DNA of 20,000 bases, from IMG/VR virus record IMGVR_UViG_3300042257_000233; one strand, 5' to 3'. The notes under the pieces are model-generated. The model did not search any database. It was not told the DNA's origin and worked only from the letters and a program-made list of their open reading frames with translations. Source of the stretch: an uncultured virus (IMG/VR IMGVR_UViG_3300042257_000233) (lineage: Duplodnaviria; Heunggongvirae; Uroviricota; Caudoviricetes). Position numbers and translations under genes: made by a program. Below, in pieces: positions 2 to 18,325 of this stretch (its first letter is position 1; each line of letters begins with the position of its first letter).

Positions 2-1234
2 AGCTACGCAAGCGACGCTTACGGCGTGTGCTATGATCTCGACACCGGTGAGTTTACCCGACTGGGCACACTTGCGGCTATCTCTGCCACGTACGATACA
101 AGCTACAAGCCGCTCAGCAATGTACCCGATTTGCTGTTGCCGATACAGCGCAACATGCGCCGGTGCCTGCTGAAAGATGACCGGACGGTAAACTACTATT
201 GCAGCGCTACGGACACAACCAAAAAGGCAAACGGAGAAGCTGCTGTGCTTGATGGCACCGATGGGCAAGTGATGGTGGAAATTCCTGCGCACTGGTGGAA
301 ATTCGAGCGTATAGGCAACAAGCTGTACTGGTGGGTCGCTCCAACAGAAAAGACGGGTTATGGATGGAACTACTTTCCCAAAAATTATTATGGTACATAC
401 GAAGGGCAGTTGTATGACCATAGCGCTGGCAGTATTGTAGGCGGCCAAGGTGGAGCCGATACAGCCAACGACAAGCTCTGCTCGGTAAGCGGAGTAGAAG
501 CGCATACTGATGAGACAATCGTAGAATATCGTGACATAGCAACGAATCGTGGCACCGGTTGGTATCAGCAAGCAAATCACATTGACGCCGCAGTTGCACG
601 ACTCTATCTCATTGAGTATGCCAGCTTTGACACGCAAAGCAAAATATCGGAAGGTTTAACGAATGCGAGTAGTGGAGATTGGGGCGCATATAATGGCTAT
701 TGCCCGCTGCATGCCGCAGGCATTACTAACAGTTTAGGTAACACCTCCGGTGAAGTAGCGCTGAACATCGAAAATTTCGTCGATGGAACGGGGACGTTGA
801 GCACACAGGCAATGAGTTATCGCGGAATAGAGAATTGGTATGGGCATCTTTGGAAGTGGCTGGACGGAGCGAACGTACACAACAGCCTTGCCAGTGGCAG
901 CAGATTGTATTTGTGTAGCGATCCTGCAAATTTCGCAAGCGACACCTCAACCAATTATGAGTTAGTCGGGACATTGCCGCAAACCGCGAACTATTACGAC
1001 GTATTACCTCTGGATAACGGGTTTTACCCATCAACAACAGTAAAAGGCTCTACCACAGGGTTGTGCGATTACTTTTACACGGCTTACCCGGCTGAGGGGT
1101 GGCGTGTCGTGGCTGTTGGTGGTGCCGCGTCTTACGGTGTGCTAGCGGGCGCTTTCTGCGTTCTTTCGCTTAGCGCTTCCTCGTATGACCATTCGTACTT
1201 TGGCGGTCGTCTCTGCGCGGCTGCTGGAGAGTAA
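2..1234 (+). CDS. DGR target protein with C-terminal C-type lectin (CLec/Mtd-like, FGE-type) fold; probable phage receptor-binding/tail protein; 5'-truncated by the window edge
   Basis: The frame is open from base 2 (SYASDAYGVCYD...), so the GTG at 26 is probably not the true start. It has the CLec/FGE-like motif GIENWYGHLWKWLDG (824-868) and a terminal GGRLC, and its 3' end contains the VR matching the TR. Confidence 0.88.
   Translation, partial: SYASDAYGVCYDLDTGEFTRLGTLAAISATYDTSYKPLSNVPDLLLPIQRNMRRCLLKDDRTVNYYCSATDTTKKANGEAAVLDGTDGQVMVEIPAHWWKFERIGNKLYWWVAPTEKTGYGWNYFPKNYYGTYEGQLYDHSAGSIVGGQGGADTANDKLCSVSGVEAHTDETIVEYRDIATNRGTGWYQQANHIDAAVARLYLIEYASFDTQSKISEGLTNASSGDWGAYNGYCPLHAAGITNSLGNTSGEVALNIENFVDGTGTLSTQAMSYRGIENWYGHLWKWLDGANVHNSLASGSRLYLCSDPANFASDTSTNYELVGTLPQTANYYDVLPLDNGFYPSTTVKGSTTGLCDYFYTAYPAEGWRVVAVGGAASYGVLAGAFCVLSLSASSYDHSYFGGRLCAAAGE
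1104..1216 (+). repeat. DGR variable repeat (VR)
   Basis: 113-bp ungapped match to 1261-1373 (offset 157). All 22 mismatches are at positions that are A in the downstream copy. It lies in the last ~45 codons of the target gene. One more A>C pair at 1260/1103 may extend the repeat by one base. Confidence 0.97.
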
Positions 1235-1373: not shown

Positions 1374-1395
1374 TTATCTAAACCTTATGCCAGAG

Positions 1396-2827: not shown

Positions 2828-2836
2828 GAGGATAGG

Positions 2837-3172
2837 ATGAGGATGAGCGAAAGCAAGCTACGGCAGCCTGATGTGATACCGCAAGGGCAGGCCAAGCTAA
2901 TTAACTTCAATCATGAGCAGGTTACCCGAACAGGTGAGGATGGACTGACTGAAGCCTTTTGGAGATGTGAGCAGGTGCGGGTTCATGCCTACGCATCTCG
3001 CGGTGCGATAATTTCAGCCATAATCCGTAACAAATATGATGAGCCGGGGCAGGAAGCTGCACTTATTAACAATGCTATTGCAAACCCAGAAGAGGCTACA
3101 GCACAGGCAGAATACGCAGAATACCAGCAGCGCCGGCAGATGGCAAAAGCCGTAGCAGATAGCATCCAGTAA
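2837..3172 (+). CDS. Hypothetical phage protein (111 aa); possibly a tail-fibre assembly/chaperone-type protein
   Basis: RBS AGGAGG upstream. Helical C-terminus IIRNKY...EYAEYQQRRQMAK resembles small proteins found next to phage tail-fibre genes; function is inference. Confidence 0.6.
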   Translation: MRMSESKLRQPDVIPQGQAKLINFNHEQVTRTGEDGLTEAFWRCEQVRVHAYASRGAIISAIIRNKYDEPGQEAALINNAIANPEEATAQAEYAEYQQRRQMAKAVADSIQ

Positions 3173-3181
3173 AGGACGAAC

Positions 3182-3565
3182 ATGAGTGAAGCAGACGTTA
3201 GAATCGCAAAACTCGAACAGAGACAGGAGAGCTGCGAGTCTCGATTGTCCGCTGTAGAAGACACACAGAAACAGATCACGGAGATCAGAGACCTTCTGCT
3301 GGTTATACAGTCTGATTTGCAACATGAGATCAAGGACTTCGATGATAAGCGTCTGCGCTGCATGAAGGAATTCGACGCACGCTACGTGCAGCATTCGCAA
3401 CTGAACAGCTGTGTGCAGAAGCAGATCGATAGTGACCGCGAGAAGCGGAGTGAAACCACCAGCCGCAGCACGCTGATATTTGGCAGAGTTTTGGATATCG
3501 CCTTTAAGCTCTGCGTGGTACTGGCGGCAGGATACGCAGTGTACAGCGCTGCGATGGGAGGATAG
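3182..3565 (+). CDS. Coiled-coil protein with C-terminal transmembrane helix (127 aa; holin/XhlA-like architecture)
   Basis: Heptad pattern RIAKLEQRQESCESRLSAVE, hydrophobic C-terminus IAFKLCVVLAAGYAVYSAA, and position directly before a holin gene. Confidence 0.6.
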   Translation: MSEADVRIAKLEQRQESCESRLSAVEDTQKQITEIRDLLLVIQSDLQHEIKDFDDKRLRCMKEFDARYVQHSQLNSCVQKQIDSDREKRSETTSRSTLIFGRVLDIAFKLCVVLAAGYAVYSAAMGG

Positions 3566-3566
3566 G

Positions 3567-4010
3567 GTGATAAAAGAGATAATCGGCGCAGTGGCAGGAG
3601 CAATAAAACCAGCTACAGACTTGGTGGATAATCTCACCACCACCACCGAAGAAAAAATGCAACTGCGCAATGCGCTGGAACAATTACAGAACCAAGTAAC
3701 CACCAAGCTGATAGACTATGATACCGAAGTGGCAAAGGCAAAAGCTGAGATCATGAAAGCAGAATTGCAGCAGGATGACAAATTTACCAAGCGAGCACGT
3801 CCATGGATTATTTATGGCGGATTGATTGCGCTGGGGCTTAACCACATCATGCTACCATGGGCGGCATGGATAATGACAGCGGTAGGCGCAACCACCGAAG
3901 CATTACCAGCAATTAACCTGCCAGGTGAATTTTGGCTTGCATGGGGTGGGGCGGCTGGTGTTTACGCTTTTCGCCGGACTTCTGAGAAGCTAACCAAGGC
4001 AAAGGGGTAG
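3567..4010 (+). CDS. Holin, GTA/3TM-type (147 aa)
   Basis: Start reassigned to GTG 3567, after a GGAGG RBS and just past the upstream stop. Pattern LVDNLTTTTEEK...DDKFTKRARPWIIY plus hydrophobic helices and terminal RRTSEK fits the 3TM holin family. Confidence 0.75.
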   Translation: MIKEIIGAVAGAIKPATDLVDNLTTTTEEKMQLRNALEQLQNQVTTKLIDYDTEVAKAKAEIMKAELQQDDKFTKRARPWIIYGGLIALGLNHIMLPWAAWIMTAVGATTEALPAINLPGEFWLAWGGAAGVYAFRRTSEKLTKAKG

Positions 4011-4013
4011 GAT

Positions 4014-4235
4014 ATGGATAAGCTCTATCATTTCTGCGGCTGTGCCGTAGTGGCCTTTGGTGCCGGGGTGCTGTGGAAGAACCCGGCGGCAGGCTACGGT
4101 GTGGCGGTAACGGCAGGCATCCTGAAGGAAGAAGCAGACGATCGGCCCGGCGGCAGCGGCTACGACAAACTGGATATCCGGGCTGATGTAATGGGCGCGC
4201 TGGTAGGGAGCTGCGCTGCAATGCTGGTGTTGTGA
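4014..4235 (+). CDS. Small membrane protein, YfiM/VanZ-like (73 aa)
   Basis: Motif order DKxxHF ... GxxKExxD ... DxxADxxG on hydrophobic helices. Confidence 0.6.
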   Translation: MDKLYHFCGCAVVAFGAGVLWKNPAAGYGVAVTAGILKEEADDRPGGSGYDKLDIRADVMGALVGSCAAMLVL

Positions 4236-4678
4236 TGGCGCAGGAAGTTTTTGTTTTTGATGCCCGTCGTAACGCGGTGACGGGAAAATTCGGCAACATG
4301 GATATTGTGCGGGGGCAGCCGCTTACCGGGGGTAAATGGTTGAAGAACGTGGTTGTGTTCCAAAACACTGACGGTGATCTGAAAGAGTACCCATCCAGCA
4401 GCAACACATCAGAGACGGCGACCGTGCGCACAGCACGGTATGCATTAGATGAAGCGGGAGAAGAGCGGATAGGCAAGATAAAAGTGGTGTATGAAGGCAC
4501 TGCTACAGTGATGGTGTACAGTTACAACCACCGTTACGAGACTACCCCGTACCGGGTGATTACCTGCACCGGAATAAGCAGTGACACATGGTTTGTGTTA
4601 CCGCTGAACGTGAAATCTTCGTTTATAGAGATACAAGTGAGTGGGTTTACCACTTTGAAGGCAATTTTCATACAGTAG
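4232..4678 (+). CDS. Hypothetical beta-rich phage protein (148 aa), possibly structural
   Basis: Overlaps the upstream stop, is strand-rich, and sits just before the putative ejection protein genes. Confidence 0.55.
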   Translation: MMAQEVFVFDARRNAVTGKFGNMDIVRGQPLTGGKWLKNVVVFQNTDGDLKEYPSSSNTSETATVRTARYALDEAGEERIGKIKVVYEGTATVMVYSYNHRYETTPYRVITCTGISSDTWFVLPLNVKSSFIEIQVSGFTTLKAIFIQ

Positions 4679-4687
4679 GAGGCAGGG

Positions 4688-6271
4688 ATGGCATGGTATT
4701 CTGCACCGTTAGTGCTAGGAGCGATTGACAGCGCGAGACATTATTTTAACAAGCCCAAGCAGCAGCAGCCGGACACGGGCTGGATGCAGAGATTTATAAA
4801 CAATTGGAAGGGTGAAGTGAGTTCTAACACCACCCAGAATCGCATTATGCGGGATGCGCAGCGCACCATAGGCGCGAATGCCACCAGAGCGAACCAGCAG
4901 ATAGGGTATGATTTGGCACGTACCGGAAATGAAGGATTAGCCGCCAGTGCAATACTGCAAACGCAGAAGAACAGCAACGCAGCGGGGCAAAACGCATTGC
5001 AGTATGCCAGCAGGCAGCAGGAGCAGGACAACACCCGCTACCAGAATAAAATAGAGAATCTGGAGATGATGCGGGAGCGGATAGAGGCAGAGGCGCGGCA
5101 GCGGCACAACGTGGCAATGGATGAATGGAAGCAGGGCTGGGGCGATGTGGCCATGAATACCGCTGGTCGATTGGCAACCGCCGGGATGAACGAGATGGCA
5201 CGCAATGCAGCAGAGCTGAAACAGCAGGGCACCAGGGAAGAGAGCGCAGGCATCCTGAACAAACTGATGGACGGGAGCCTGAACGATGCTGACCTGCAGG
5301 AAGCAGTACGCAGCGGCGCAATGACGGTGAACGAAGCATGGCGCTACGCACAGACCATGGACAGCCAGGGTGATGACCAAGCCTATTTTGATGCAGTGAA
5401 AAAGCTGGCAGGTGGCACGCACGAATGGAACCCTGAATTTGATACCGGGCAGAACATGAAGCTGCTGCAACTGAGTATACCGGATGAAACCAACTCTGGA
5501 GAAGCGTATTACAACGAGCTGGCAGGGATATTGAAAAGTGACCGGGCATTTGATCCGAAGATGACGACACAGCAGAACGTGAATATACTGCGTAGCAGCC
5601 AGACGGCAGACACCGGGGAAGAGCAGAACAAAGTGTATTATGGCATGAGTACCAACCCAGACCTTACCCCGGAGCAGGTAGATGCAGCGGTAAATGCCGG
5701 AGCAATAACGCCACAGATGGGTTTGAACCTGCAAAAACGCTTTGCCACGGAAGATATTGAGACCGACTGGTACAAAGGCGAAGATGGGCTGGAGCACCAG
5801 CAGGCAAACATTAATGGACAATGGGTGGACACTGGCATCACACGCAAGGCAAACTACAATGCCAGCGCAGACAAACGACAGCAAAAAGCACAGCAGGATT
5901 TGGTTACCTTTGGCAATGAACTGGAGGTATACTCGAAGTTTACTAATAATGCCGCAGCTGAGGATATGCGAGACCTGGTAAGTAACATTACCACCATCCC
6001 GCTGGATGAGGCGCAGGACAGGCTGTATAATTATGTTAACGGAATGGACTTGCCTATCAAAGGTGGAAATAGCATTGAATACCCTGGACCAAAAGGGGAA
6101 AAGATAAAAATAACTTTGGCCGGTGACAGCGACGAGGCGAAGTTATTTGATGCACGGATGAAGATTTACACCCGGCTCACTAAAGCGTTGAACAACATAC
6201 GGCTGAATATGGGCGAGCAGACGACGCCTGATAATTTTAATGATGACTTTAATCAGTTTGATTGGGACTAA
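4688..6271 (+). CDS. Probable internal virion / DNA ejection protein (527 aa)
   Basis: RBS AGGAGG. Q/N/A-rich helical N-terminus with no cysteines, located immediately before the giant polyvalent protein. Function inferred from composition and gene order. Confidence 0.55.
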   Translation: MAWYSAPLVLGAIDSARHYFNKPKQQQPDTGWMQRFINNWKGEVSSNTTQNRIMRDAQRTIGANATRANQQIGYDLARTGNEGLAASAILQTQKNSNAAGQNALQYASRQQEQDNTRYQNKIENLEMMRERIEAEARQRHNVAMDEWKQGWGDVAMNTAGRLATAGMNEMARNAAELKQQGTREESAGILNKLMDGSLNDADLQEAVRSGAMTVNEAWRYAQTMDSQGDDQAYFDAVKKLAGGTHEWNPEFDTGQNMKLLQLSIPDETNSGEAYYNELAGILKSDRAFDPKMTTQQNVNILRSSQTADTGEEQNKVYYGMSTNPDLTPEQVDAAVNAGAITPQMGLNLQKRFATEDIETDWYKGEDGLEHQQANINGQWVDTGITRKANYNASADKRQQKAQQDLVTFGNELEVYSKFTNNAAAEDMRDLVSNITTIPLDEAQDRLYNYVNGMDLPIKGGNSIEYPGPKGEKIKITLAGDSDEAKLFDARMKIYTRLTKALNNIRLNMGEQTTPDNFNDDFNQFDWD

Positions 6272-6274
6272 GCA

Positions 6275-9200
6275 ATGGCACAATATAACAGAGACCAATA
6301 CCTCTTTGCACAGAAGATGACAAGTAAGTACAGCGTGCCTGCATACCGGGCAATGCTGCAACCAGAGCAGCGAGATAAGCTGCAAAAGATGCAGAACTAC
6401 TTGAATACCTATCAGCAGAATTTTGAGGCTGAGGAGCGGCAAATGGCGTTTAATACGCTGCCGCTGGACGAACGAACGGGGCAGGGATTACCACAACCAC
6501 GCAGGGAGCGCATTGAATCTTTCTCTCAGATGCCGCTTGATGAGAGAACAGGGGAGACTTTGCCTGAGCGTCCACTGGAGAAAAAACCGGGGGTATTTCA
6601 GCAGATGGTTGATGTGTTCAGGAAGAAACCGGAGCCGGCAGCAGGGCCTACCGTAGACCTGGCAGACCCACAGTCAGAAGAAGATGAACAGCTACAGGAC
6701 TATATAGCACAGAGGGAATACGCTGTGCATCGTATATCTCCGGCAAAAGCATATGAGATGATGCAGCTGAAGCCGATGTACAACCCTAATGATTACTTGA
6801 AAATGCTTGATCTTGAAGAAGAAAAATATTACCAGAAGAAATACCAACAGATGGATGATACTGCGCGTAATGCTTTTGCTGAAGAATGGGGAATACCAGC
6901 AGAGAAAGTGTTCAGCGAATATGCACCGATAAAAGGGCCGGTTTCTGTTCCTGAAGATTACACTGGACGCGCGGGATTTGAGCCGGTGATGGATGCTGCC
7001 ACACCGACGCTCAGAGCTGAAGCGGAAGAACGCAAGCAAAGGATCGCCGACACAACCATTATGCTTGATGCATTAGCTGCACCATTTGCCGAATTGCCGG
7101 TAAAGAAGATTGAAGGGTTAGTTGATGTAACTAATGCAGCGCTTAGTAAGATTACAGGCATCAACGTACCGGATGACAGAGGTGGCGCACTGGCTGAAGT
7201 GCGTAAAGTGCTGGATGAAGTAGGCGGAGCAGCAGCGGAAAAATACACAACCGCTGCCAAGGTTGGTGGCGCCGGAGCTGGTTTAGCAGAATTTATCGTT
7301 GATCTGGCTGTACTGAAGGGAGCGACCGGGATAACGAGCACCCCTGTTCTTTTTGCCATGAACTCAATGGTAAACAATGCGCCTGAAGTGGTTACTGGGC
7401 AGATAAGCAGAGAGGACTATCTGAAGTCAATTGGAGTGAGTGGGTTAACCGGTTTAATGTTTAATGCGACAACCGCCGCAGCACGGAGCATTGGGGCAGA
7501 GAAGGCAATAGCTGGCAAATTGGTAAAATGGATGCCGGAAAGCATGAGCGTGGGCGAAGCCGCAGCGTTGTCCGGCAAACTTGGTCGAGTATTAGGAGCC
7601 CCCATCCCAGCAGCAGGGGCAGCGGCAGCAGGAGCAGGCAGCCAAGTGATGCAGAACGTGCTTAACCACGAAGACGATATACTGAAGGGAGTGCCAGAGA
7701 GTGCAACCCAATTAGCGCTCTACAGTTTTATTACCTCAGTAGCGCCCATGGTGGTGGGGCCAAACCGCATACGTGGTGCAGAGCTGAAGACCGGGATGAA
7801 AGCTGCACAGAAGATGTTCGATGAGACGCTGTTCAGGCAGCAGGTAATTGACCACAAAGTTCCTGACCACGTGATATTGAGTGCGCGACAGCTACGCGAT
7901 ATATGGCAGACCGGCAAGCTGACAACTGCAGAAGAAAAGAGCCTGGTGCAAGAGCTGATGGGTAAAAACGATGCCACGATAAAAGATTTGATACGCAGCA
8001 AGCATGGGCTTGATATCGAGATAGGGGCAGGCAAGATTGTGCGGCTGGTGGATAAACCATATTGGAGCAAGATCAAAGGCATTTTCCGGCTTGATCCGTA
8101 CATGAAGACGGTGAAGCGTACAACCGGCGAGATGAAAGCGTACCGCACCAGCTATGGCAAGCGGCTGGGTGAGCAGCTGAATGAGGCTGAGCAGGCGATA
8201 TTGGCTGGAGATACAGCAGCAGCGCAGCGCACCATGGGGCTGATAGATGCGAACCGCAAAACCATATTGAAGAATGCAGAAGGTGATGCGCCGGTGATAA
8301 AGAAGCGCATTGCTGCCATAGAAACACAATTGGCAGGAGGAGCCGTTGAAACGCAGGAACCGCTGGAAGTGCCCGCACAACCCACCAAAACAGAAATACG
8401 CGAACAAGCCGAAGACACTACAAAGCCAAAGGTAAAGAGCAGGAAGCCGAAAGCAAAAAGTAAGAAGCCAAAGGCAGAGCGCAAGAAGCAGAAGACCTAT
8501 GTACGTACCAGCAAGGGAGTATTTGAAGTAGAGCGAGAAACTGATAAAAGCTGGATACTTACCAATGGTACCATTGCGCGCAAAAGTGCCAAAGGCAACA
8601 GCATATCTACCGAGATGGCATATAAGCGAAGTCTTGCCCGGCGCAAAGCACCCAGTAAACGCAAAGTAACCGACGAGGTGAACCTGCGCACCAGCAATAT
8701 CACGCCAGAGCGCACACCATTTCTTGACCATTTTAAAAGCACCGGGATGCAAACCAGTGATGTTGATTTGAAGAACTACCGCATCGGGATAAAGCCATTA
8801 TTCAGCAAAGACGGTGTTGAGCTGGACAGAGTAATGGAGACCCTGAGTGACGACCACCCATTATGGGCTATGACTCAGGGTGATACCGAAGCGTACAAAC
8901 AAGGACTGCTGGGCGAGATAGACAAACTGTATAATCTTGGTGATGGGAGCTGGGATGAAGCAGATATGGAGCAGCAGGAAGCACTTGCAAATCAGCGCCA
9001 GGCAGAAGAAGAAGCTGCACAGCTTTTGAAGAAAGCTGAGAAGATACCGGCCATGGATCTAAACTTGAATGACAAAGTAAAGTGGGTAGACCCGGAAACC
9101 GGGCTGGTGCATGAAGGAGTGGTGGTAGATGAAATGCCATGGTCAAAGGTGATTCAGAATAACGTGACAATGGAACTTGATGACTTTGAATCTTTGTATG

Positions 9201-12200
9201 TGCTGGATGTGCAGAAAGCTACCCCAGCTGAGGTGGCAGAAAAAAAAGAGGAGTTTGAGGAGAGTACGCAGCCTACTGAGGAGCAGCTGGAACACGGGGT
9301 GATACCAGAACTGGACAACCAAATGGCACAGTTTGGCCGCAGGGCAAATGAAAAGGCAGAGCAGGGTGAACTCTTTGGCGAAGCAGAGACCCCGGCAAAA
9401 GGTAAGAAACGACAATTGCCCAAAGATGAGCTGAAGAAGCTGGAAGAGAAGAAGCTGGCAGCAATCCAGACCGGCGGCAAAACCGGAGGCGAGATTAAGG
9501 CATTGCAGGCCAAAGCCAGAGATGAAGCCCGCCGGGAGCTGGAAGAGAAGTACTATGGCAGAGAGATTGACTTTGGTGAAGGGGTGACCGATGCCAAAAA
9601 AATTACAGAGAAACCAGCACCGGAACTTGCACCTCAACAATCAGATATTGAAAAGCAAGCACTAAACTATAAAACACCAGAAGAATTTATCGATTCGTTT
9701 AGCCTTTATCATGGCACACCAGCAAAAATACAGGGTGGAGTATTGAAGTTTGGTGCAGGTGAGCAGTTAAAGAAAGGCGGCTATATGGGCGGACATTTTT
9801 TAACTGATGAAAAGCAGGCCGCCGAATCATTCCGTATGGGCGGGGAGATATATCGTGCTCACGGTGATATAAAAAATAAAGTGTTTGATGTTAACAAAAA
9901 CAAACGCTTATTTAGGAACTTTATTGGTAAAAAGTTTAAAAATGAAGATGGCAACATGGAAACCTTTACCAAGTCACATTACGAATTTATGTTCCCAGAT
10001 AATGAGGATGCTGATTGGGCTACGGTTTACACTGATGTAGTAGAGTATATTGCAAAACCAAAGGGATATTGGGGCATGATGATCGACGAATATGCTGGCG
10101 GGGTTGATGCAAATACATATCAGTTGTGGCAGGACGAAATACCCATTTACACGGAACAACAGCTCACTGACATCTGGAACAAAGCTAACCAGCAGCCAGC
10201 CGACCAATTACCCGACGCCAAGAAAAAGGTGGAGAAGCCGGAGGCTGCACCTGCTATTGACTTAGTCAAAGAAGCAAAGAAGTATAAGACTGCTGAGGAG
10301 TTTGTAAAGAGTCAAATTGGAAGAAACATATTTGAATATAATGGGGAAAAACTTACCATAGATGCTGTAAAAGATAAGGAAGTGGCTTTATTTTGTGAAG
10401 ACACAAATGTAACTTCCTTTTATTCTGTTGATGAGGTTAAATCTCTTTTATTAAAACAATCAGATATAAATAAAGAAATTGAGTATAAAAGAGATCAAGA
10501 AGCTTTAATTGCTAAAGAATTAGAAAGAAAGAAATCAATCGAAGAACAGAAAAGGAATCTCTATGGCTATGAGAATACATTAGACGCAAAGGGCAAAGTT
10601 AGAGTTGCTAATATCTTAGATAATAAAATAAGAACAAATGATATTGGAATTGTCTCCAAAAGGGATTTTATACTAAAAAGAATTTTGGAAGATGGAAATG
10701 AAGTTGCTAATGGGATTATGGGGAAAAGGAATAAGAATGGTAATCTCATAGGAAGCAAATTAAATAAAACTGAGAGTAAATTTGCAGAGTGGGTTCAATC
10801 AAACAAACAACAGCTCACCGACATCTGGAACAAAGCTAACCAGCGGCCAGCAGACCAATTACCTGACGCCACGGAAAAGGTGGAAAAGCAGGTTGCTGTA
10901 CCACAGCTCCCATCGATAAAAGCCGACATTGACCGCCACAACAAACAGCTGAAGCGTGGCCAGATGCCCGGCGTAAGCGGAGCACAGCTTGAACAAAACC
11001 TGATAGCGGCATACAAAGCCGACGGGGTGACACCAACCACTCAGGAATACTACAAGTTGCTCAACAAGATATACGCACAGCAGTTGCCGTTAAAGGAGCG
11101 TAAGGCACGGTACAACGCCGCATTTGGCGAGGCGAAGTATAGGACATATAATGAAATTGAGGATTTTTATCAGGACTTTCTTGAAATTGAAAATGAATTT
11201 TTGTCAACAGTCGTTAATGACTTTAATAACAACACGTCTTCGCAGAAATGGATAAAACTAAAGCCACAAAGAATAAAAAAGATATTGAGGGATTTTGCAA
11301 TAAGTGGAGTTGTGCGAGATGAGAAGGGGGTTGATCAAGTTTCAGGGCATTTAATACGTAATATTTTAAAATTGCGGGTAAACAACATCATTGCTGGACA
11401 CACTGATTTTGACCCAATAGAATATATCCAAGAACACCATGAAGACTTTAATCCAACAGAAAAAGACTTCGATGATTTTGTCTTTGACTATTTGTATGAT
11501 GAAAAATCAAAACAGATGAGGATCAGCGATTATGGTTCTCCTAAGCTGGAAAAACTTGCCAAGGATTTATATCTATCAACAGATTATAATGCTAAAGTTA
11601 GAATTATAGACCAAATATTGAATGTGGTACACCAAAGAAGTGATCTTGCTGAATTATTTGTTGAGGGTGGTTCCTCTATTCTCGAAGACATATCAGAGCA
11701 AAGATTCCGCACAGCCTTAGATTCTCCCGCATCCCAAACCACCAAAACAGACCTGATGCGTGAAGCTGGCAAAATCCTTGGCACCGATAATGCCGAGAAG
11801 ATACTGCGCTTTGTGGAGAAGATAACAACACCAGACGGCAGAGAGGCACTTGGTAAATATGAGGGCGGACTGATAGACATTGTTATGGGTCGTGGCAATC
11901 CATCAGACACATTCCTTCATGAATGCGTTCACTGGGCGGAAGATTTACTGGAAGAAGATGAGCTCTCAGCACTCGAAAAAGCCATGCCTGACGCCGAGGA
12001 TAGAGCAGAGGGTGTCATTGCATATCGCAACGGAACAAAGACGCTCAGCGGCAAGATTAAGCGCATTGTAGACAAATTACTGCGAACTATCCGTCGGCTA
12101 TTTGGCAAACAGCGCAAGATTGACGTGCTTTACGATTTCTACGACAAACTCATGGCCGGGTATTATGCGCAACAGGGGGCTATCACCGACAACATGTTTA

Positions 12201-15200
12201 CTAATTTAGCAAACGCATTCCGCACCAGCGCAGATGAAGCACGTAAACAATACGAAGCTGTGAAGCTGGTGAAGGATAAAAATGGCAACCTGCTTGCACC
12301 AAATGGTAAGAAGTCAAACCTGAATGAACACCAATGGCGACAGGTGCGCACTCAATTCTTCAAAGACTGGTTCGGGGACTGGGAGAATGACCCAGATAAT
12401 GCAAGTAAGGTTGTAGATGAGAACGGTGAGCCGATGGTGGTTTATCATGGGACGCCTAATGCTATGTGGCTCCCTTATTATTATGCTAAAAAAATAGCAA
12501 TTAGGTTGATCAAAAAAAATGAATCAGAAAAATTAAAAGAAATATACAAAAAAATTAATTCTAAGCTGAAAGAAAGAAATGCCGCTAAGAGAGTGGAGAA
12601 CATTGATGACGTAAGATTCATGGTTAATGCAATTGGATTTAACAAGATGCTTGGTGTTACTGAATCTGAATTAAATGAACTGGCTTCTTGGACAAACCCA
12701 AATCCTTTTGATTATATTGAAGAACACAAAGAACAATTATCAGAACAAGAGTTAACTAAACTTAAATCTGATACATTTGTTGAATTTTCTCAAAAAATGG
12801 TAGGAACAAACACTAAATCTCCAGACGCTAAAGCAGGATTTTTCTTTACTGATGATTCAGAATTTGCGCGCAGGTTTACTTATCAGAAAAATATTGATCC
12901 AATCACTAATACGGTGACAATAGAGCAACCAAGACCTAAAATGTATTCGGTATATTTGTCTATTAAAAATCCAGTTCAAGCATATAAAATGAGTAAACAA
13001 CAAGCAAAAGAATTGTCGGCAATAGATGGCATTCCGTTTACTGATAGCGAATTATTGTCATTTTCCAAAACAATAGATGGGTCTAAAGGCACACAAAAAT
13101 GGTTGGCACCTCATATTAATTTACTAATAAAGAATGGTTATGACGGAATTGTAAACAAAGTTAAGTTTGAAAATAAAGGAAGAATTGAATACATCGCCTT
13201 CTCCCCTACCCAAATCAAATCAGCTACCGCCAACGTAGGCACATTCTCAGCAGACACCGCAGACATCCGGTACAGGGAATATAAACCGGGTGCGCTTAGT
13301 GAAGCACTAAAAAAGGTAAAACCAGAGATTAAACAGTCAATCACCCAGAAGGTTAATGAAACGCCGCTTTCTCTCAATTACGAAACATTCTTGCAAAAGG
13401 CGCAGCGGAAATTACAGGATTCTTTGAGCAGGTCAGGGCAGGTTGTAGAAGAAGCCAAAAAGGTAGCTAAGGTGTCAGACGAAATAGACTTTCGCGAGAG
13501 AGCAGAGCTTTTCATTGGCAAGGCATCAAGAGTAATAGAGAAAAAACAAGATCAATTCAATATAAGCAAAGATGATTCTTTTACGAAGCGACTTATTGAT
13601 GCTGGATACGACATAGAACAACTTGACAAATACCTCATGGCATCATTTGCACCAACGGTAAACCAGCAGGTTCTTGAAAAATTCGGTAAAGAAAACGGTT
13701 CCGGGATGACAGATGCACAGGCGGAAGAAATAATGCAGAAATACGAAGGTTCTGACATTAAATCCTTTGCCGAAGAGTACAGGAAAGAGGTTACCCAAAA
13801 ATCGCTACAGATGATGTATGATAGCGGGTTAATATCAAAAGAGCTTTATGATAAGTTTAGCGCCCAGAAAGACCTCTATGTTCCATTAAAAAGGGATAAG
13901 GACACAACCCGCAAGGGTCGAGGGACAGGTCAGGGGTATTCAGTAACAGGCAGGGGCATAAAAGCGAGAAAGGGGAGAACCACACTTGCTGCAAGCCCGT
14001 TCGTTAATGGACTGCTTGATTTCCAAGATACTGTTGTAAGATCAGAAAAAAACAAAGTTGGTCAATCAGTATTGAAGTTTGCAGAGGCGTTCCCAGATTA
14101 TAAGGCCCCGAACGGAAAACCACTCTTTGAAGTGCGAAGCCAGCAATACATCCCGGTATATGACAAAAACGGTGAGATAGATTTTTTCAATCGCAGATAT
14201 AAAATAGAGGACAACGAGCTGTCTGTTTGGGTCGATGGTAAGCAAAAGATAATTACGATTAATGATGACTCACTTGCCCGTGGCTTAAAGAACCTTGGGC
14301 TGGAGCGTGGTGTTAAATTCTTGAATGCGGCGAACACATTTCTGCGATCTGTTATTACGATGCTGAGTCCTGAGTTTATGATAACAAACTTTGAACGAGA
14401 CATACAAACAGCGATGATAAACATTACAACACAGCAAAAGAAGAACATACAGAAAGAGATGGTTAAAAACGTAATTCCGGCGATACGTGGCGGGTTTAGT
14501 GCTATCCGTGGGGGATCTGGAAGTAAATGGGCCAATGTATTCAATGATTATGCAGACAATGGAGGCAAGACAGGATGGTTTGAGAACAAAAACTTTGATG
14601 AAGTTTTGAGCGGTTTTGAGAAAAACATTAAGAGATACAAGGCAAACAATAAACCAATTAAGGCGGCACGAGAAACAATAAACTTTATAATGGACATGAA
14701 TGAAGCGGTAGAAAATGGGATAAGAATAGCGGCTTACGAGGCTCTTGTGCGCCGTGGTGTTTCTAAGCAAAAGGCTGCTGTTGCGGCAAAAAATCTTACC
14801 GTTAACTTTAACAAAAAGGGCGAATGGGGCGCAGTGATAAATAGCCTTTATCTGTTCTCTAATGCAAGTATACAGGGCACTGCTATTATTGCAAAATCAT
14901 TAAAGAACAAAAAAGTGCAACGTGTTGTTATTGGGCTAATTGCAATGGCCGTGTTGCAAAATGTTATAAATAGGCATATAGATGATGATGAGTATGAAAA
15001 ACTTGACCCATACATAAAGGATAACAACTGGATTTACATGTTGCCAAATGGCAAACACATAAAGATAAGGGTACCGTTTGGATACAGTATCTTTAATGTT
15101 CTTGGGAATGTTATAGCTGACGCAGCCTATGGTGACATTGACATGGGGGAAGCAATATCTCGGTTGTTTTCTGGTGCATTGGATGCGTTTAACCCATTCG

Positions 15201-15820
15201 GATCAACACCAACTGTTGCGCAGTTAATCTCACCAACGGTTGTTGACCCAATTGTTCAAATATCGGAAAATAAAAATTTCTTTGGTGGCCCCATCCGCCC
15301 AGATCAGCCACCATATCAACCGAAAGTTCCAGAAAGTGAGCTTTATTTTAAATCGGTTCGTCCGCAAACAAAAGCAATAACAGATTGGGTTTATAAAATT
15401 ACAGGAGGGGAAGATGGCAAAGACTGGTATACCATAGACATCAGCCCGGAAAACATCGATCACATCATTGACTTCCTTGGGGGGGGTCTTGGAAAGTTTG
15501 TGAGCAATACAATTGCAACTGGGACTTCATTGGCAAAAGATGGTGAGTTTCCAGCGTTAAATAAAATCCCAATATTACGAACAACCTATGGTGAGTCTTC
15601 TGATTACCATAATTTAAGAGTTGTTTATGATATGTTGCAGGAAAGTGGCAGAACAAAATTTAGTGTGCGAAAAAGAACACAGTTTTATGATGCCCTGCGC
15701 GGAGCTGTGTCTGATGGTAAAATAACAAACGACACGATGGTTAAGATGAAAAATCGATTCGATAAAGCCCAAGGGCTTAGTGTTGAAAGGACTAATAGGA
15801 AAAGAAGGAGTAGAAGATGA
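6275..15820 (+). CDS. Large polyvalent protein (3181 aa): Ala/Gly-rich hydrophobic N-terminal region, two ADP-ribosyltransferase-like domains, HExxH metallopeptidase-like domain, LPD38-like C-terminus; probable injected virion protein
   Basis: Uninterrupted 9.5-kb ORF. Motifs: LYHGT...GHFLT (from 9704); TFLHECVHW...EDRAE (HExxH 11918-11932); FKDWFGDW...VVDENGEPMVVYHGT...GFFFT...YLSIKNP...GYDGI...FSPTQIKSA (about 12290-13276); AKNLTVNFNKKG...RVPFGY...NKNFFGGPI...SPENIDH in the C-terminal region. Confidence 0.85.
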   Translation: MAQYNRDQYLFAQKMTSKYSVPAYRAMLQPEQRDKLQKMQNYLNTYQQNFEAEERQMAFNTLPLDERTGQGLPQPRRERIESFSQMPLDERTGETLPERPLEKKPGVFQQMVDVFRKKPEPAAGPTVDLADPQSEEDEQLQDYIAQREYAVHRISPAKAYEMMQLKPMYNPNDYLKMLDLEEEKYYQKKYQQMDDTARNAFAEEWGIPAEKVFSEYAPIKGPVSVPEDYTGRAGFEPVMDAATPTLRAEAEERKQRIADTTIMLDALAAPFAELPVKKIEGLVDVTNAALSKITGINVPDDRGGALAEVRKVLDEVGGAAAEKYTTAAKVGGAGAGLAEFIVDLAVLKGATGITSTPVLFAMNSMVNNAPEVVTGQISREDYLKSIGVSGLTGLMFNATTAAARSIGAEKAIAGKLVKWMPESMSVGEAAALSGKLGRVLGAPIPAAGAAAAGAGSQVMQNVLNHEDDILKGVPESATQLALYSFITSVAPMVVGPNRIRGAELKTGMKAAQKMFDETLFRQQVIDHKVPDHVILSARQLRDIWQTGKLTTAEEKSLVQELMGKNDATIKDLIRSKHGLDIEIGAGKIVRLVDKPYWSKIKGIFRLDPYMKTVKRTTGEMKAYRTSYGKRLGEQLNEAEQAILAGDTAAAQRTMGLIDANRKTILKNAEGDAPVIKKRIAAIETQLAGGAVETQEPLEVPAQPTKTEIREQAEDTTKPKVKSRKPKAKSKKPKAERKKQKTYVRTSKGVFEVERETDKSWILTNGTIARKSAKGNSISTEMAYKRSLARRKAPSKRKVTDEVNLRTSNITPERTPFLDHFKSTGMQTSDVDLKNYRIGIKPLFSKDGVELDRVMETLSDDHPLWAMTQGDTEAYKQGLLGEIDKLYNLGDGSWDEADMEQQEALANQRQAEEEAAQLLKKAEKIPAMDLNLNDKVKWVDPETGLVHEGVVVDEMPWSKVIQNNVTMELDDFESLYVLDVQKATPAEVAEKKEEFEESTQPTEEQLEHGVIPELDNQMAQFGRRANEKAEQGELFGEAETPAKGKKRQLPKDELKKLEEKKLAAIQTGGKTGGEIKALQAKARDEARRELEEKYYGREIDFGEGVTDAKKITEKPAPELAPQQSDIEKQALNYKTPEEFIDSFSLYHGTPAKIQGGVLKFGAGEQLKKGGYMGGHFLTDEKQAAESFRMGGEIYRAHGDIKNKVFDVNKNKRLFRNFIGKKFKNEDGNMETFTKSHYEFMFPDNEDADWATVYTDVVEYIAKPKGYWGMMIDEYAGGVDANTYQLWQDEIPIYTEQQLTDIWNKANQQPADQLPDAKKKVEKPEAAPAIDLVKEAKKYKTAEEFVKSQIGRNIFEYNGEKLTIDAVKDKEVALFCEDTNVTSFYSVDEVKSLLLKQSDINKEIEYKRDQEALIAKELERKKSIEEQKRNLYGYENTLDAKGKVRVANILDNKIRTNDIGIVSKRDFILKRILEDGNEVANGIMGKRNKNGNLIGSKLNKTESKFAEWVQSNKQQLTDIWNKANQRPADQLPDATEKVEKQVAVPQLPSIKADIDRHNKQLKRGQMPGVSGAQLEQNLIAAYKADGVTPTTQEYYKLLNKIYAQQLPLKERKARYNAAFGEAKYRTYNEIEDFYQDFLEIENEFLSTVVNDFNNNTSSQKWIKLKPQRIKKILRDFAISGVVRDEKGVDQVSGHLIRNILKLRVNNIIAGHTDFDPIEYIQEHHEDFNPTEKDFDDFVFDYLYDEKSKQMRISDYGSPKLEKLAKDLYLSTDYNAKVRIIDQILNVVHQRSDLAELFVEGGSSILEDISEQRFRTALDSPASQTTKTDLMREAGKILGTDNAEKILRFVEKITTPDGREALGKYEGGLIDIVMGRGNPSDTFLHECVHWAEDLLEEDELSALEKAMPDAEDRAEGVIAYRNGTKTLSGKIKRIVDKLLRTIRRLFGKQRKIDVLYDFYDKLMAGYYAQQGAITDNMFTNLANAFRTSADEARKQYEAVKLVKDKNGNLLAPNGKKSNLNEHQWRQVRTQFFKDWFGDWENDPDNASKVVDENGEPMVVYHGTPNAMWLPYYYAKKIAIRLIKKNESEKLKEIYKKINSKLKERNAAKRVENIDDVRFMVNAIGFNKMLGVTESELNELASWTNPNPFDYIEEHKEQLSEQELTKLKSDTFVEFSQKMVGTNTKSPDAKAGFFFTDDSEFARRFTYQKNIDPITNTVTIEQPRPKMYSVYLSIKNPVQAYKMSKQQAKELSAIDGIPFTDSELLSFSKTIDGSKGTQKWLAPHINLLIKNGYDGIVNKVKFENKGRIEYIAFSPTQIKSATANVGTFSADTADIRYREYKPGALSEALKKVKPEIKQSITQKVNETPLSLNYETFLQKAQRKLQDSLSRSGQVVEEAKKVAKVSDEIDFRERAELFIGKASRVIEKKQDQFNISKDDSFTKRLIDAGYDIEQLDKYLMASFAPTVNQQVLEKFGKENGSGMTDAQAEEIMQKYEGSDIKSFAEEYRKEVTQKSLQMMYDSGLISKELYDKFSAQKDLYVPLKRDKDTTRKGRGTGQGYSVTGRGIKARKGRTTLAASPFVNGLLDFQDTVVRSEKNKVGQSVLKFAEAFPDYKAPNGKPLFEVRSQQYIPVYDKNGEIDFFNRRYKIEDNELSVWVDGKQKIITINDDSLARGLKNLGLERGVKFLNAANTFLRSVITMLSPEFMITNFERDIQTAMINITTQQKKNIQKEMVKNVIPAIRGGFSAIRGGSGSKWANVFNDYADNGGKTGWFENKNFDEVLSGFEKNIKRYKANNKPIKAARETINFIMDMNEAVENGIRIAAYEALVRRGVSKQKAAVAAKNLTVNFNKKGEWGAVINSLYLFSNASIQGTAIIAKSLKNKKVQRVVIGLIAMAVLQNVINRHIDDDEYEKLDPYIKDNNWIYMLPNGKHIKIRVPFGYSIFNVLGNVIADAAYGDIDMGEAISRLFSGALDAFNPFGSTPTVAQLISPTVVDPIVQISENKNFFGGPIRPDQPPYQPKVPESELYFKSVRPQTKAITDWVYKITGGEDGKDWYTIDISPENIDHIIDFLGGGLGKFVSNTIATGTSLAKDGEFPALNKIPILRTTYGESSDYHNLRVVYDMLQESGRTKFSVRKRTQFYDALRGAVSDGKITNDTMVKMKNRFDKAQGLSVERTNRKRRSRR
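10155..10889 (+). repeat. 84-bp direct repeat pair inside the giant ORF (10155-10238 and 10806-10889)
   Basis: 7 mismatches in 84 nt, offset 651 nt (in frame). The copies encode QQLTDIWNKANQQPADQLPDAKKKVEK and QQLTDIWNKANQRPADQLPDATEKVEK. Confidence 0.95.
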
Positions 15821-17109: not shown

Positions 17110-17195
17110 AACGGCTAATCCTATTCATTGGCATCCACAATTTTAACAATATCAGACTTCAATCTGGTATTCACAACATAAAGGAGTTGATATGA
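17106..17195 (+). pseudogene. 29-codon mini-ORF / gene remnant, ATGA-coupled at both ends
   Basis: ATG 17106 overlaps the upstream TGA. It reads MKRLILFIGIHNFNNIRLQSGIHNIKELI* and its TGA overlaps ATG 17192. Confidence 0.4.
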
Positions 17196-18325
17196 AAAGA
17201 CTTACGATACTTTTAGCATTGCTTGTGCTGCTTGCGGCTGGCTTTGCCGATGATGCGTTTGGCAAAATCATTGCACGGGCATCGACTGGCGATTTTGTCT
17301 CAACGTGGAAAACGGACAACCCTGGCACGTCTGAGGATAATCAGATTACTTTGCCGCTGGAATCGACAGGTACTTACGATTTTGTCGCTTATTGGGGCGA
17401 TGGCACATTTGACGAGATTACGGCTTATAATGACGCAGCCGTAAAGCATACTTATCCTACTGCTGGAACGTATACCGTGCGAATTATCGGCGAAATTAAC
17501 GGCTGGCGATTCAATAATACTGGTGACAAATCTAAAATTACCGACATCTCCCAGTGGGGTGATTTGCTTATTGGCAATTCTGGTGGCTATTTTTATGGCT
17601 GCAATAATCTTAATGTTACCGCTACAGACGTGCTTGACGTATCATCTGTAACGTCATTCTATTTTGCATTCCGAGACTGCTCATCGCTTACAACCTTAGA
17701 CGTTTCGAGCTGGGATGTCTCATCTGTAACAACATTCGGTTATGCATTCTATAACTGCTCATCGCTTACGACGTTAGACGTCTCGAACTGGGATGTCTCA
17801 TCTGTAACGTCATTCTCTGTTGCATTCTATAACTGCTCATCGCTTACAACCTTAGACGTTTCTGGCTGGAATGTCTCATCTGTAACGACATTCTCTTATG
17901 CATTCGATGGCTGCTCATCGCTTACAACCTTAGACGTTTCGAGCTGGGATGTCTCATCTGTAACGACATTCGCTGTTGCATTCCGTGGCTGCTCATCGCT
18001 TACGACGTTAGACGTCTCGAACTGGGATGTCTCATCTGTAACGTCATTCGCTGTTGCATTCTATGGCTGCTCATCGCTTACCGCCTTAGATGTATCGAGC
18101 TGGCAAATACCTCTTGTGGCAGACATGAACAATATGCTTACTGGCACAACAATCGACAATTATTCAACCGTACTTATCAACTTTGCCGCACAATCACCAG
18201 CATTGCAAGATAGTGTTGTGTGGGGGGCTGGGAGTGCAAACAAGTTTGATTCAACAGCTGTAGCGGCAAAAGCCGTGCTGACGGATACACATTACTGGAC
18301 AATAACTGATGGGGGACTTGAATAA
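17192..18325 (+). CDS. BspA/DUF285-type leucine-rich-repeat surface protein with signal peptide and PKD-like domain (377 aa)
   Basis: Signal MKRLTILLALLVLLAAGFA, PKD-like YWGDG...HTYPTAGTYTVRI, ISQWG cap, and 26-aa repeats WDVSSVT(T/S)FxxAFxxCSSLTTLDVSx ending in WTITDGG. Confidence 0.9.
   Translation: MKRLTILLALLVLLAAGFADDAFGKIIARASTGDFVSTWKTDNPGTSEDNQITLPLESTGTYDFVAYWGDGTFDEITAYNDAAVKHTYPTAGTYTVRIIGEINGWRFNNTGDKSKITDISQWGDLLIGNSGGYFYGCNNLNVTATDVLDVSSVTSFYFAFRDCSSLTTLDVSSWDVSSVTTFGYAFYNCSSLTTLDVSNWDVSSVTSFSVAFYNCSSLTTLDVSGWNVSSVTTFSYAFDGCSSLTTLDVSSWDVSSVTTFAVAFRGCSSLTTLDVSNWDVSSVTSFAVAFYGCSSLTALDVSSWQIPLVADMNNMLTGTTIDNYSTVLINFAAQSPALQDSVVWGAGSANKFDSTAVAAKAVLTDTHYWTITDGGLE
17636..18103 (+). 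repeat. Six tandem 78-nt coding repeats (LRR units)
   Basis: Units start at 17636, 17714, 17792, 17870, 17948 and 18026. Framework blocks tcatctgtaac, gcattc and tgctcatcgcttac are invariant. Confidence 0.97.

Follow-up and report, generated by a model that had tools for sequence, protein, structure and literature searches.

Recurrent two-sided border peptides flank unrelated payload modules in giant phage proteins and may serve as joints for their in-frame exchange

Exchange of payload domains at a conserved joint is a familiar property of polymorphic toxin loci, in which a conserved motif (VENN in CdiA, the end of the core in Rhs) precedes a hypervariable payload and recombination at that place swaps one payload for another. 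In these loci only one side of the payload is marked by such a joint; the payload itself is invariably C-terminal, an immunity gene follows it, and orphan cassettes are found. Polymorphic toxin loci are mentioned in passing in the account of phage polyvalent proteins given by Iyer, Burroughs, Anand, de Souza and Aravind in 2017 (PMC5512222). According to that account, polyvalent proteins display extensive domain mosaicism, cassette-like recombination is raised for one kinase locus, and a processing metallopeptidase (MPTase) domain is frequent although not obligatory; it mentions neither border peptides conserved on both sides of a module nor border DNA with fixed codons, and the words 'linker' and 'boundaries' do not occur in it. 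A further precedent is the capsid-targeting sequence of phage T4, which is N-terminal and removed by the prohead protease, and which a review suggests may have evolved as a means of bringing various proteins into the head (PMC9026906).

The locus described here lies in a 20,000-nt stretch of DNA from an uncultured member of the Caudoviricetes (IMG/VR IMGVR_UViG_3300042257_000233), hereafter the window, and all the features given below are on the plus strand. A giant gene (6275..15820), open for 3181 amino acids, encodes LPD38 at residues 2904-3092 (E 1.7e-40, Pfam), ART-PolyVal at residues 2168-2324 (E 7.7e-19, Pfam) and a second module of ART fold, hence at least two effector or enzymatic domains. 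Its neighbourhood is a late/virion region, with a DGR tail protein, a holin and a baseplate-like protein close by; the nearest phage, record G001, is syntenic and has genes for terminase, portal, head, tail protein, DGR reverse transcriptase, the giant protein and endolysin. As in known polyvalent proteins (PMC5512222), effector-type domains, ART-PolyVal and LPD38 included, are thus strung in one giant polypeptide beside virion genes. The gene product is best explained as a phage polyvalent cargo protein with portable modules strung along its middle part, and by analogy with other polyvalent proteins it would travel in the virion and be passed on to the host, an assumption drawn from the gene's context. 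The downstream cargo contains an HExxH motif (HECVH, 11918..11932), possibly that of a metallopeptidase, and Pfam gives a weak hint of Tox-MPTase3 in the giant protein (E 0.13, below any threshold). The upstream DGR, whose template and variable repeats lie at 1095-1397, was ruled out as acting on the borders discussed below.

In the middle of the giant protein, two adjacent modules each have a KYK(S/T)AEEF-type peptide (L) at the start and QLTDIWNKAN (R) at the end. A reading made from the sequence alone had proposed that they share both borders but not their interiors; this holds, except that the left borders are alike as peptides only. L2 (10259..10315, DLVKEAKKYKTAEEFVKSQ) is canonical; L1 (9644..9697, DIEKQALNYKTPEEFIDS) is degenerate, whereas R1 (10154..10192, EQQLTDIWNKANQ) is perfect. 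The YKT codons at 9668 and 10283 are both in frame, as had been noted. Since L1 and L2 are identical at only 29 of 60 nucleotides, the window has no left DNA arm, and repetition at the DNA level is confined to the right border and the linker behind it. A repeat search, which together with inspection of the sequence defined R1 and R2 (10805..10843, KQQLTDIWNKANQ), yields a 97-nt direct repeat (copy 1, 10155..10251, R1 plus linker 1; copy 2, 10806..10902, R2 plus linker 2), the copies being 89% identical and 651 nt, that is 217 codons, apart, in frame. The earlier figure of 77/84 identities is correct for the 84-nt window starting at 10155; over the first 66 nt the copies differ at four positions, three of them synonymous. 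Linker 0 (9590..9634, DAKKITEKPAPELAP), a degenerate copy of the linker found after each R, includes the DAKKITEKP copy previously seen ahead of module 1, at 9590-9616.

This arrangement resembles polymorphic toxin loci in that a short conserved peptide, with its DNA, stands at the joint to a variable payload, and differs from them in that the L/R modules are two-sided, internal and in series, with no immunity genes involved. Orphan cassettes and immunity genes of the polymorphic-toxin type are absent from the window, and among the catalogued ORF segments there is a single free-standing module ORF (L077, 202 aa, with both L and R). The T4 sequence is likewise a short portable peptide ahead of very diverse virion-packed payloads (PMC9026906), but its N-terminal position is not that of L, which is internal in 140 of 143 cases. 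L/R modules moreover have a second, C-terminal motif, and targeting and cleavage are only putative functions for L.

The module 1 interior (9698..10153) was assigned an ADP-ribosyltransferase fold from a sub-threshold Pfam match and a structure match. The earlier label 'ART-like' stands by fold; since ART-PolyVal (PF18760) scores 23.3 bits (E 1.2e-4), under the curated cut-off of 31.2, module 1 is filed as ART-fold and related to the family, and not as a curated member. With a longer, 225-aa slice of the region Pfam gave no ART match. In a structure search with the predicted model (VIA-align), the top 46 rows were nearly all ART-fold proteins, and the best, 7k7b_A (Z 7.2, a middling value; rmsd 3.9; 110 aligned), covers model residues 27..181, most of the predicted domain. 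Foldseek gave no match at E <=0.001, and its top rows were likewise ARTs. Of the catalytic triad, the His of YHGT is present in module 1 and nearly invariant in the alignment of ART interiors; aligned against PDB sequences, this family gave nothing meaningful. By BLASTP the interior clusters with 21 others. Both borders lie outside the ART core of the model, where L1 forms two short helices (residues 10-26, block pLDDT 93-94) and R1 a helix at 180-191 (block pLDDT 90-93), while VIA ranges are mostly 27..181. A link to the cyanophage A4 ejectosome (9k3a_B, Z 5.2) was dropped, the A4 paper making no mention of ART.

The module 2 interior (10316..10804) is modelled by AF2 as a small beta-barrel, a 42-residue helix and an alpha/beta subdomain (mean pLDDT 85, pTM 0.54), with L2 as helices 4-8 and 14-19 and R2 as helix 185-196 (block pLDDT 92-97). 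It is low in GC: the counts given earlier, 12/60 at 10441-10500 against 37/60 at 10921-10980, are exact, and in 200-nt windows GC is 0.275-0.295 across 10300-10800 and about 0.5 on both sides. Pfam, PHROGs, PDB (by sequence) and Atlas returned no match and no name, Foldseek no match at E <=0.001, and VIA weak SH3/Tudor-like matches only (Z <=5.3), which barely cover the C-terminal subdomain. The barrel matches begin at residues 13-16 and thus include the second L helix. Homologues at 29-38% identity occur in six proteins of 587-1816 aa (P0003-P0007, P0010) and in stand-alone proteins of 112-201 aa; members of the family carry both L and R, one, or neither. The two interiors are unlike each other: BLASTP gives E 0.46, profile-profile comparison aligns the left border only, and the predicted folds differ.

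L and R recur widely. The R pattern is found in 101 stretches of viral contigs and the L pattern in at least 122, while a strict R pattern with ANQ is restricted to 4 viral contigs; cataloguing of L...R pairs, as the sequence-only reading had proposed, gave 143 L, 104 R and 68 consecutive pairs 22-238 aa apart in 158 non-nested ORF segments. An L follows within 60 aa for only 13 of the 104 R, and six complete stop-to-stop segments with a motif are shorter than 400 aa. The consensus of L is (D/E)P-L-x-x-E-A-(K/R)-K-Y-K-(S/T)-A-E-E-F-V, two short helices, and that of R is (I)-K-T-K-S-Q-L-T-D-I-W-N-K-A, one helix. Conservation extends to positions outside the search patterns, both in L (Leu at L-6, 0.89; Glu at L-3, 0.94; Ala at L-2, 0.99) and in R (Thr at R-3, 0.70; Lys at R-2, 0.74; Ser at R-1, 0.71). 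The 68 interiors, the window's two included, fall into 32 BLASTP clusters; among 66 viral modules compared with Pfam, 18 are ART-PolyVal, one is GNAT and 46 are without match at E <=1e-3. In the genome collection the R pattern occurs in 32 stretches, and about 24 of 34 matches look genuine by context. These all lie on MAG contigs whose labels span many phyla, so that a host cannot be named; the sole match in an isolate, in Ruminiclostridium, looks like chance. The L and R strings were not found in the literature searched, in keeping with the previous statement that no named system has these borders.

Conservation of the borders is also visible in their codons. For Ser, R uses TCC in 48/52 cases (background 9%) and L uses AGT in 77/86 (background 23%). 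GAG encodes the first Glu of AEEF in 107/112 cases and the second in 106/112 (background 31%), while the Glu at L-3 is GAA in 91/107. The codons of Ala L-2 and Leu L-6 are randomised. This signature is still present when one module per interior cluster is kept (n=31). A constraint on the peptide alone would give nucleotide identities of 0.79 for R and 0.805 for L; the observed values are 0.885 and 0.853. The similarity of border copies is only slightly higher within ORFs (0.79) than between them (0.71-0.72). In many phages, numerous payloads unrelated to one another are flanked by the same L and R, alike also in their codons position by position. Inheritance, rather than selection, could account for the codon signature. 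Interior identity is 21-28% (55% in one row), against nearly invariant border peptides; this conservation, far above that of the payloads and beyond what DNA arms need, implies that a protein-level role must exist, and it may be the main one.

Where phage genes are otherwise unrelated, the DNA or protein homology that they share is delimited by L and R. Islands bounded by L and R were found in 5-6 kb loci that are otherwise unmatched, namely L190/L272 (89.3% over 413 bp), L089/L242 (80.8% over 588 bp) and L043, L063, L083 and L243 (83-94% over 413-520 bp), and a 119-bp R-linker-L junction recurs in L242 and L243 at 99.2%. Of 34 island ends, 26 are no more than 15 nt from a motif, against 2.7% for random positions, a count that comes from about three independent module families and one junction pair, with each pair counted in both directions; the island pair L048/L085 is remote from all motifs. 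The window itself matches the catalogued loci by blastn at L1 (one locus), L2, R1 and R2 and in one weak interior match, and nowhere else; L2 matches more than 100 loci at 85-95% nt identity over 37-64 nt. The earlier suggestion that the borders are recombination arms gains comparative support across loci, where islands end at L/R and the border DNA is more conserved than the peptide requires, and is weaker for the window itself, in which only R plus linker is repeated and the break with G001 falls in linkers.

That break deserves description. Window positions 1-9582 correspond to G001 14848-24429 at 99.24% nt identity, and the N-terminal carrier part (6275..9582, residues 1-1103) is 98.7% identical; in viral contigs, relatives of this part are limited to G001 and one contig-end fragment. 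Identity stops just past 'REIDF' (about 9575-9582), some 65 nt upstream of L1, where G001 continues with a different, 374-aa module that has neither L nor R. The sole G001 match downstream of 9582 is a 30-nt island (10192..10221, identical to G001 25552-25581) in the QPADQLPDA linker after R1. The degenerate PADQLPDA pattern occurs in 34 stretches of viral contigs, and among the matches listed it is a linker in a giant ORF only for G001. With break and island both in linkers, and a G001 module without L or R, the joints in this lineage are marked by linkers and not by L/R.

Other relatives differ from the window in content or order, so the cassette picture holds, and the earlier proviso that homologues might always carry the same interiors in the same order does not apply. 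The closest homologue of module 1, at 55% identity, is alone in an otherwise unrelated 1406-aa protein of locus L176, which has in common with the window giant only residues 1121-1304, from L1 to R1; P0003 has a module-2-like domain ahead of ART; and the giants of G002, G005 and G006 share only the module region with that of the window. No match to 9000-11500 was found by blastn in the phage GenBank collection, and none of 10 loci from a metagenome scan was closely related to either interior. In an independent run, X3, one contig matches the window as far as 10310, just past L2, and again from 10799, just before R2, with a different linker after R2; what joins 10310 and 10799 is recorded as 'between: not known'. 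The 651-nt deletion joint for which the sequence-only reading had suggested a search was not seen in clean form in the contigs of four runs, of which X3, X5 and X6 cover the region partly.

I consider it fairly probable that L and R cap the two ends of portable cargo modules, which are gained and swapped in frame via border and linker DNA, the 97-nt repeat being an insertion scar. Each module would consist of a payload domain with a left cap, L, and a right cap, R, and modules would be joined by variable Pro/Lys/Glu-rich linkers. Conserved border and linker DNA may be the site of homologous recombination during co-infection, and in-frame joining would allow payloads to be gained, lost or swapped while the carrier stays intact. 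In the window, the low-GC module 2 may have been spliced in behind the ART module through R plus linker, leaving the 97-nt duplication. L and R probably act at the protein level as well, most simply as N- and C-terminal helices capping each module. A bolder proposal, possible though on balance doubtful, is that L and R are nucleotide-level standard adapters whose codons are kept as in-frame joints, so that any payload could be plugged into unrelated carriers. Two further accounts start from the locus itself or from the pairing of the borders. That a single module was duplicated in tandem and the copies later diverged, or that the assembly joined two phages at the repeat, is very improbable. 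A 97-nt direct repeat with an in-frame period would fit either origin, X1 contigs do break near 9340-9369 and 10687-10714, and the window resembles a recombinant, its left half G001-like and its right half unmatched; yet sequence, profile and predicted fold all show the interiors to be unrelated, GC differs by some 20 points, X1 contigs span 9340-10714 and 10687-13000 without differences from the window, a contig of another study (X6, 9874-10358) bridges R1 and L2, and P0002, a database protein that may stem from the same sample, has the same module order at 99% identity. It is somewhat less remote, but still improbable, that L and R are two halves of one scaffold domain, a helical clasp that brings the module ends together and accepts any payload. 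Their co-occurrence at domain-size spacing in the 68 pairs and their confident helices outside the ART core of module 1 agree with a clasp. The module 2 model (pTM 0.54) speaks against it, with L by the N-terminal barrel, R by the C-terminal subdomain and 42 residues of helix between them, as do the inclusion of an L helix in the barrel matches, the fact that L and R can stand alone (module 2 relatives with both, one or neither; a degenerate L1 beside a perfect R1) and the lack of L-R covariation over 40 column pairs (lowest p 0.024). The split scaffold offered earlier as an alternative to recombination arms is accordingly not supported.

A different view, which I regard as unlikely, takes L and/or R to be protein-level signals, either recognition marks for a protease that would release the effectors as separate units or docking tags for the capsid interior, with DNA exchange as a by-product. 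Near-invariant peptides beside payloads drifted to 21-28% identity would be natural for such signals. Processing of polyvalent proteins into functional units by metallopeptidase domains has been proposed (Iyer et al. 2017, PMC5512222), and in T4 a variety of proteins are brought into the head by a 10-residue N-terminal peptide, which is afterwards removed (PMC9026906). HExxH occurs in the window giant and also in the printed sequences of the G001 giant and P0010, although the metallopeptidase assignment is under any threshold. The letters of the T4 sequence seem similar to the K(S/T)xEEF(V/I) core of L. Signals of this kind fit less well with the models, in which L and R are confident packed helices (block pLDDT 76-97), protease sites being usually extended loops. 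A cleavage mark would have nothing to release where R sits 1-18 residues before the stop codon, as 15 of 104 do, and a T4-type N-terminal tag is hard to reconcile with only 3 of 143 L near an ORF start (<=70 aa from the upstream stop). A docking partner or protease would, besides, need conservation across carriers, and BLASTP shows no relationship between the carriers of different phages. Signals and portable end-caps are compatible with each other.

Mosaicism of polyvalent proteins was already known; what is new here is a two-sided border that shows in the peptide as well as in the codons. Polyvalent proteins are regarded as tool kits injected against host defences, and the fast reshuffling of their domains has so far been unexplained. 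The two-sided border offers a concrete, searchable joint and a way to list payload families, 46 of 66 modules being without a Pfam name, and it could supply a natural rule for in-frame cargo fusions in phage engineering. If L and R did prove to be standard adapters, they would constitute a natural domain-shuffling system selected for the evolvability of the injected tool kit.

The window comes from an uncultured tailed phage and lies in its late region, and the runs matching it in a run search come from wastewater and aquatic metagenomes. Its giant polyvalent-protein gene (6275-15820, + strand) is a single ORF of 3181 aa whose C-terminal half matches Pfam LPD38 (E 1.7e-40) and ART-PolyVal (E 7.7e-19), both marks of phage 'polyvalent proteins' as Iyer et al. 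2017 (PMC5512222) define them. Two consecutive modules, each framed by a left and a right border peptide (L and R), lie within this gene, all parts being on the + strand. Behind linker 0 (9590-9634, DAKKITEKPAPELAP), module 1 comprises L1 (9644-9697, DIEKQALNYKTPEEFIDS), interior 1 (9698-10153), which has an ADP-ribosyltransferase (ART) fold, and R1 (10154-10192, EQQLTDIWNKANQ); linker 1 (10193-10258) leads to L2 (10259-10315, DLVKEAKKYKTAEEFVKSQ), interior 2 (10316-10804; beta-barrel, long helix and alpha/beta part), R2 (10805-10843, KQQLTDIWNKANQ) and linker 2 (10844-10903). Taken together, R and its linker are repeated directly over 97 nt (89% identity, period 651 nt), and a recount bears out the 77/84 identity given for these repeats by the sequence-only reading. 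L1 and L2 are identical at 29 of 60 nt and are alike at the peptide level only. The GC content is 0.275-0.295 within interior 2 and about 0.5 in both flanks. Two more low-GC islands (0.30-0.36) occur in the giant gene, one at 11100-11700 with an L-like peptide at its start (GEAKYRTYNEIEDFY, 11126-11170), the other at 12400-13200 with the Pfam-positive ART-PolyVal domain inside it. The cargo region also carries an HExxH motif (HECVH, 11918-11932, + strand) with a weak Tox-MPTase3 match (E 0.13); HExxH is present as well in the sequences of the giant protein of G001, the nearest phage record, and of P0010, a database protein matching module 2. Elsewhere, a diversity-generating retroelement occupies 1095-2540: a variable repeat (~1095-1216) at the 3' end of a tail-protein ORF (2..1234), a template repeat (~1252-1375), mismatches between the two falling essentially all at template A positions, and a reverse transcriptase (1485-2540; RVT_1 E 1.3e-17; phrog_1423 in the G001 copy). 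A 377-aa protein (17192-18325) with BspA-type leucine-rich repeats, DUF285 (E 1.1e-38) and a weak PKD match is probably a receptor-binding or surface protein.

The two interiors had been claimed to be unrelated, and they are indeed not homologous: BLASTP gives E 0.46, the predicted folds differ, and a profile-profile alignment of the two families covers the left border alone. When the AlphaFold2 model of module 1 (22-sequence alignment; mean pLDDT 76, pTM 0.70) was compared with 48,161 chains using VIA-align, ART folds made up almost all of the best 46 rows, headed by 7k7b_A (Z 7.2, rmsd 3.9, 110 aligned, model range 27..181). Foldseek returned nothing at E 0.001 or better for module 1; its best rows nevertheless have the ART fold. 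Pfam ART-PolyVal scores 23.3 bits, under the 31.2 cut-off, and a longer slice around the module gave no Pfam ART match. The ART-fold VIA-align rows include the cyanophage A4 pre-ejectosome chain 9k3a_B (residues 1418-1603; Z 5.2, rmsd 5.7, 134 aligned; model of window 9617-10216), and the text of the pre-ejectosome paper makes no mention of ART. The model of module 2 (10-sequence alignment; mean pLDDT 85, pTM 0.54) consists of a small beta-barrel, a 42-residue helix and an alpha/beta subdomain, with weak, SH3/Tudor-like VIA-align matches (Z at most 5.3) and no name in Pfam, PHROGs, PDB or Atlas. A search of 1.84 billion representatives yielded 21 matches at E 0.001 or better; the six proteins P0003-P0007 and P0010 (587-1816 aa) are 29-38% identical over the interior, other relatives are stand-alone proteins of 112-201 aa, and the relatives have L and R, one of them, or neither. 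Judged by these sequences, module 2 is a real family. In contigs of X3, an independent sequencing run, the module 2 match extends up to 10494, followed by in-frame stop codons and an apparent new gene start, while in another X3 contig it starts at 10686; in some other phage, the N-terminal barrel may form the end of a different gene.

Degenerate DNA patterns for QLTDIWNxA (R) and KYKxAEEF (L) were found in 101 and at least 122 IMG/VR stretches, respectively, a few matches only being expected by chance for R (a rough estimate from the information content of the pattern). Conserved residues outside the search patterns extend L to (D/E)P-L-x-x-E-A-(K/R)-K-Y-K-(S/T)-A-E-E-F-V and R to (I)-K-T-K-S-Q-L-T-D-I-W-N-K-A. 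Among the matches listed, 158 non-nested ORF segments hold 143 L and 104 R motifs, including 68 consecutive L-to-R pairs spaced by 22-238 aa. Since an L follows within 60 aa of just 13 of these 104 R, the unit is L-payload-R and not R-linker-L. R lies 1-18 residues ahead of the stop codon in 15/104 cases, L near the ORF start in only 3/143 of those listed, and one L-ART-R gene is free-standing (L077, 202 aa). Giants of 1564, 1791 and 2957 aa have one or two L/R modules behind 250-750 N-terminal residues, and by BLASTP the module region is all they share with the window's protein; the carriers differ between phages. Genuine R motifs also occur in a genome collection, in large ORFs on small MAG contigs (L250-L281) labelled Saccharibacteria, Peribacteria, Dojkabacteria, Pacearchaeota, Micrarchaeota, Stahlbacteria, Gammaproteobacteria and others, which probably belong to phages and were binned with many hosts. 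Together with the window's two, 66 viral interiors form 32 BLASTP clusters, an upper bound on payload kinds because remote ARTs probably make up a few more of the small clusters. The largest (n=22) contains module 1, and module 2 is a singleton; of the 66, 18 match Pfam ART-PolyVal, 1 matches GNAT and 46 match no Pfam family. A payload family of 10 modules, the second in size (L053, L062, L082, L084, L094, L131, L134, L166, L181, L190), always lies between L and R, shares the pattern 'TIYR...GD(W/F)VT' without a Pfam match and is, on this sequence evidence, an unnamed effector family.

Among otherwise unmatched 5-6 kb loci of different contigs, the modules stand out as islands of DNA similarity. 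The island of L190/L272 (89.3% over 413 bp) spans 468-880, with R at 467-493 and L at 845-868; L and R are likewise the limits for L089/L242 (80.8% over 588 bp) and L043/L063/L083/L243 (83-94% over 413-520 bp), and L242/L243 share an R-linker-L junction (99.2% over 119 bp). In 26/34 informative cases a motif is no more than 15 nt from the island end, versus 2.7% of random positions, a count drawn from about three independent module families with pairs entered in both directions; one island pair is far from any motif. By blastn, the window matches the catalogue loci at L1 (one match), L2 (more than 100 loci, 85-95% over 37-64 nt), R1, R2 and, weakly, once in an interior, and nowhere else. The window's protein has aa 1121-1304 (L1 to R1) alone in common with the 1406-aa L176 protein (55% identity), where the ART module is solitary, and in P0003 the order is reversed, a module-2-like domain preceding the ART. 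The evidence shows that module-sized homology starts and stops at L and R, and that they delimit portable modules.

G001, a 45-kb phage record that has terminal repeats, matches window 1-9582 at 99.24% identity; from there to 20000 the sole blastn match is an island of 30 identical nt within the linker behind R1. Its giant continues with a different 374-aa module lacking L and R, then QPADQLPDA, unrelated cargo and LPD38 again. Relative to G001, the stretch from 9575-9582 to 20000 forms one large recombinant block, with the giant gene's C-terminal LPD38 part and the downstream genes inside it. One record among the X3 contigs matches up to 10310 and again from 10799, the content between not being given by the record, and 10850-10918 is replaced in it by 27 other letters; contigs of four runs, X3 included, showed no clean 651-nt deletion. 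The proposal that the borders serve as recombination arms draws support from islands elsewhere that end at L or R, and is limited for the window, where the joints visible in this lineage, the break at 9575-9582 and the island of 30 nt, are linkers rather than L or R themselves.

Codon choice in the borders is position-specific, contrary to the background of the same ORFs, which is AT-rich (GC 39%). Ser is TCC in R (48/52; background 9%) and AGT in L (77/86; 23%), the first and second Glu of AEEF are GAG (107/112 and 106/112; 31%), and Glu three residues before KYK is GAA (91/107; 69%), while all codons are in use for Ala at L-2 and Leu at L-6 (residues counted back from KYK). The pattern persists with one module per payload cluster (n=31); its binomial p-values overstate independence because the border sequences are mutually related. 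Mean nucleotide identity reaches 0.885 in R and 0.853 in L, versus 0.79 and 0.805 expected with the peptide alone fixed. This signature may reflect DNA-level selection, or common descent kept alive by repeated exchange.

The border peptides must also matter as protein, since they are conserved far more than the payloads. In both models L is confidently predicted as two short helices and R as one. Because L and R lie outside the ART core in the model of module 1 and are separated by the long helix in that of module 2, the models would favour separate end-caps over a joint L-R clasp, and do not support the split scaffold proposed earlier. Possibly, L and R are cleavage or packaging signals: the HExxH motif and weak Tox-MPTase3 match of the same protein would suit cleavage, and a short, portable peptide that targets proteins in T4 (PMC9026906) is a precedent for packaging.

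Mosaic polyvalent proteins are already known from Iyer et al. 2017 (PMC5512222), in whose available text conserved two-sided, codon-fixed borders do not appear ('linker' and 'boundaries' each occur 0 times). The L/R motif strings are absent from all of the 8.4 million searchable papers, in keeping with the view of the sequence-only reading that no named system is known to have such borders. The mark of the portable L-payload-R modules is a pair of unlike caps common to unrelated carriers. Conserved border and linker DNA would provide the homology for in-frame recombination in mixed infections, and module 2 would have come in behind the ART module via R plus linker, leaving the 97-nt repeat.
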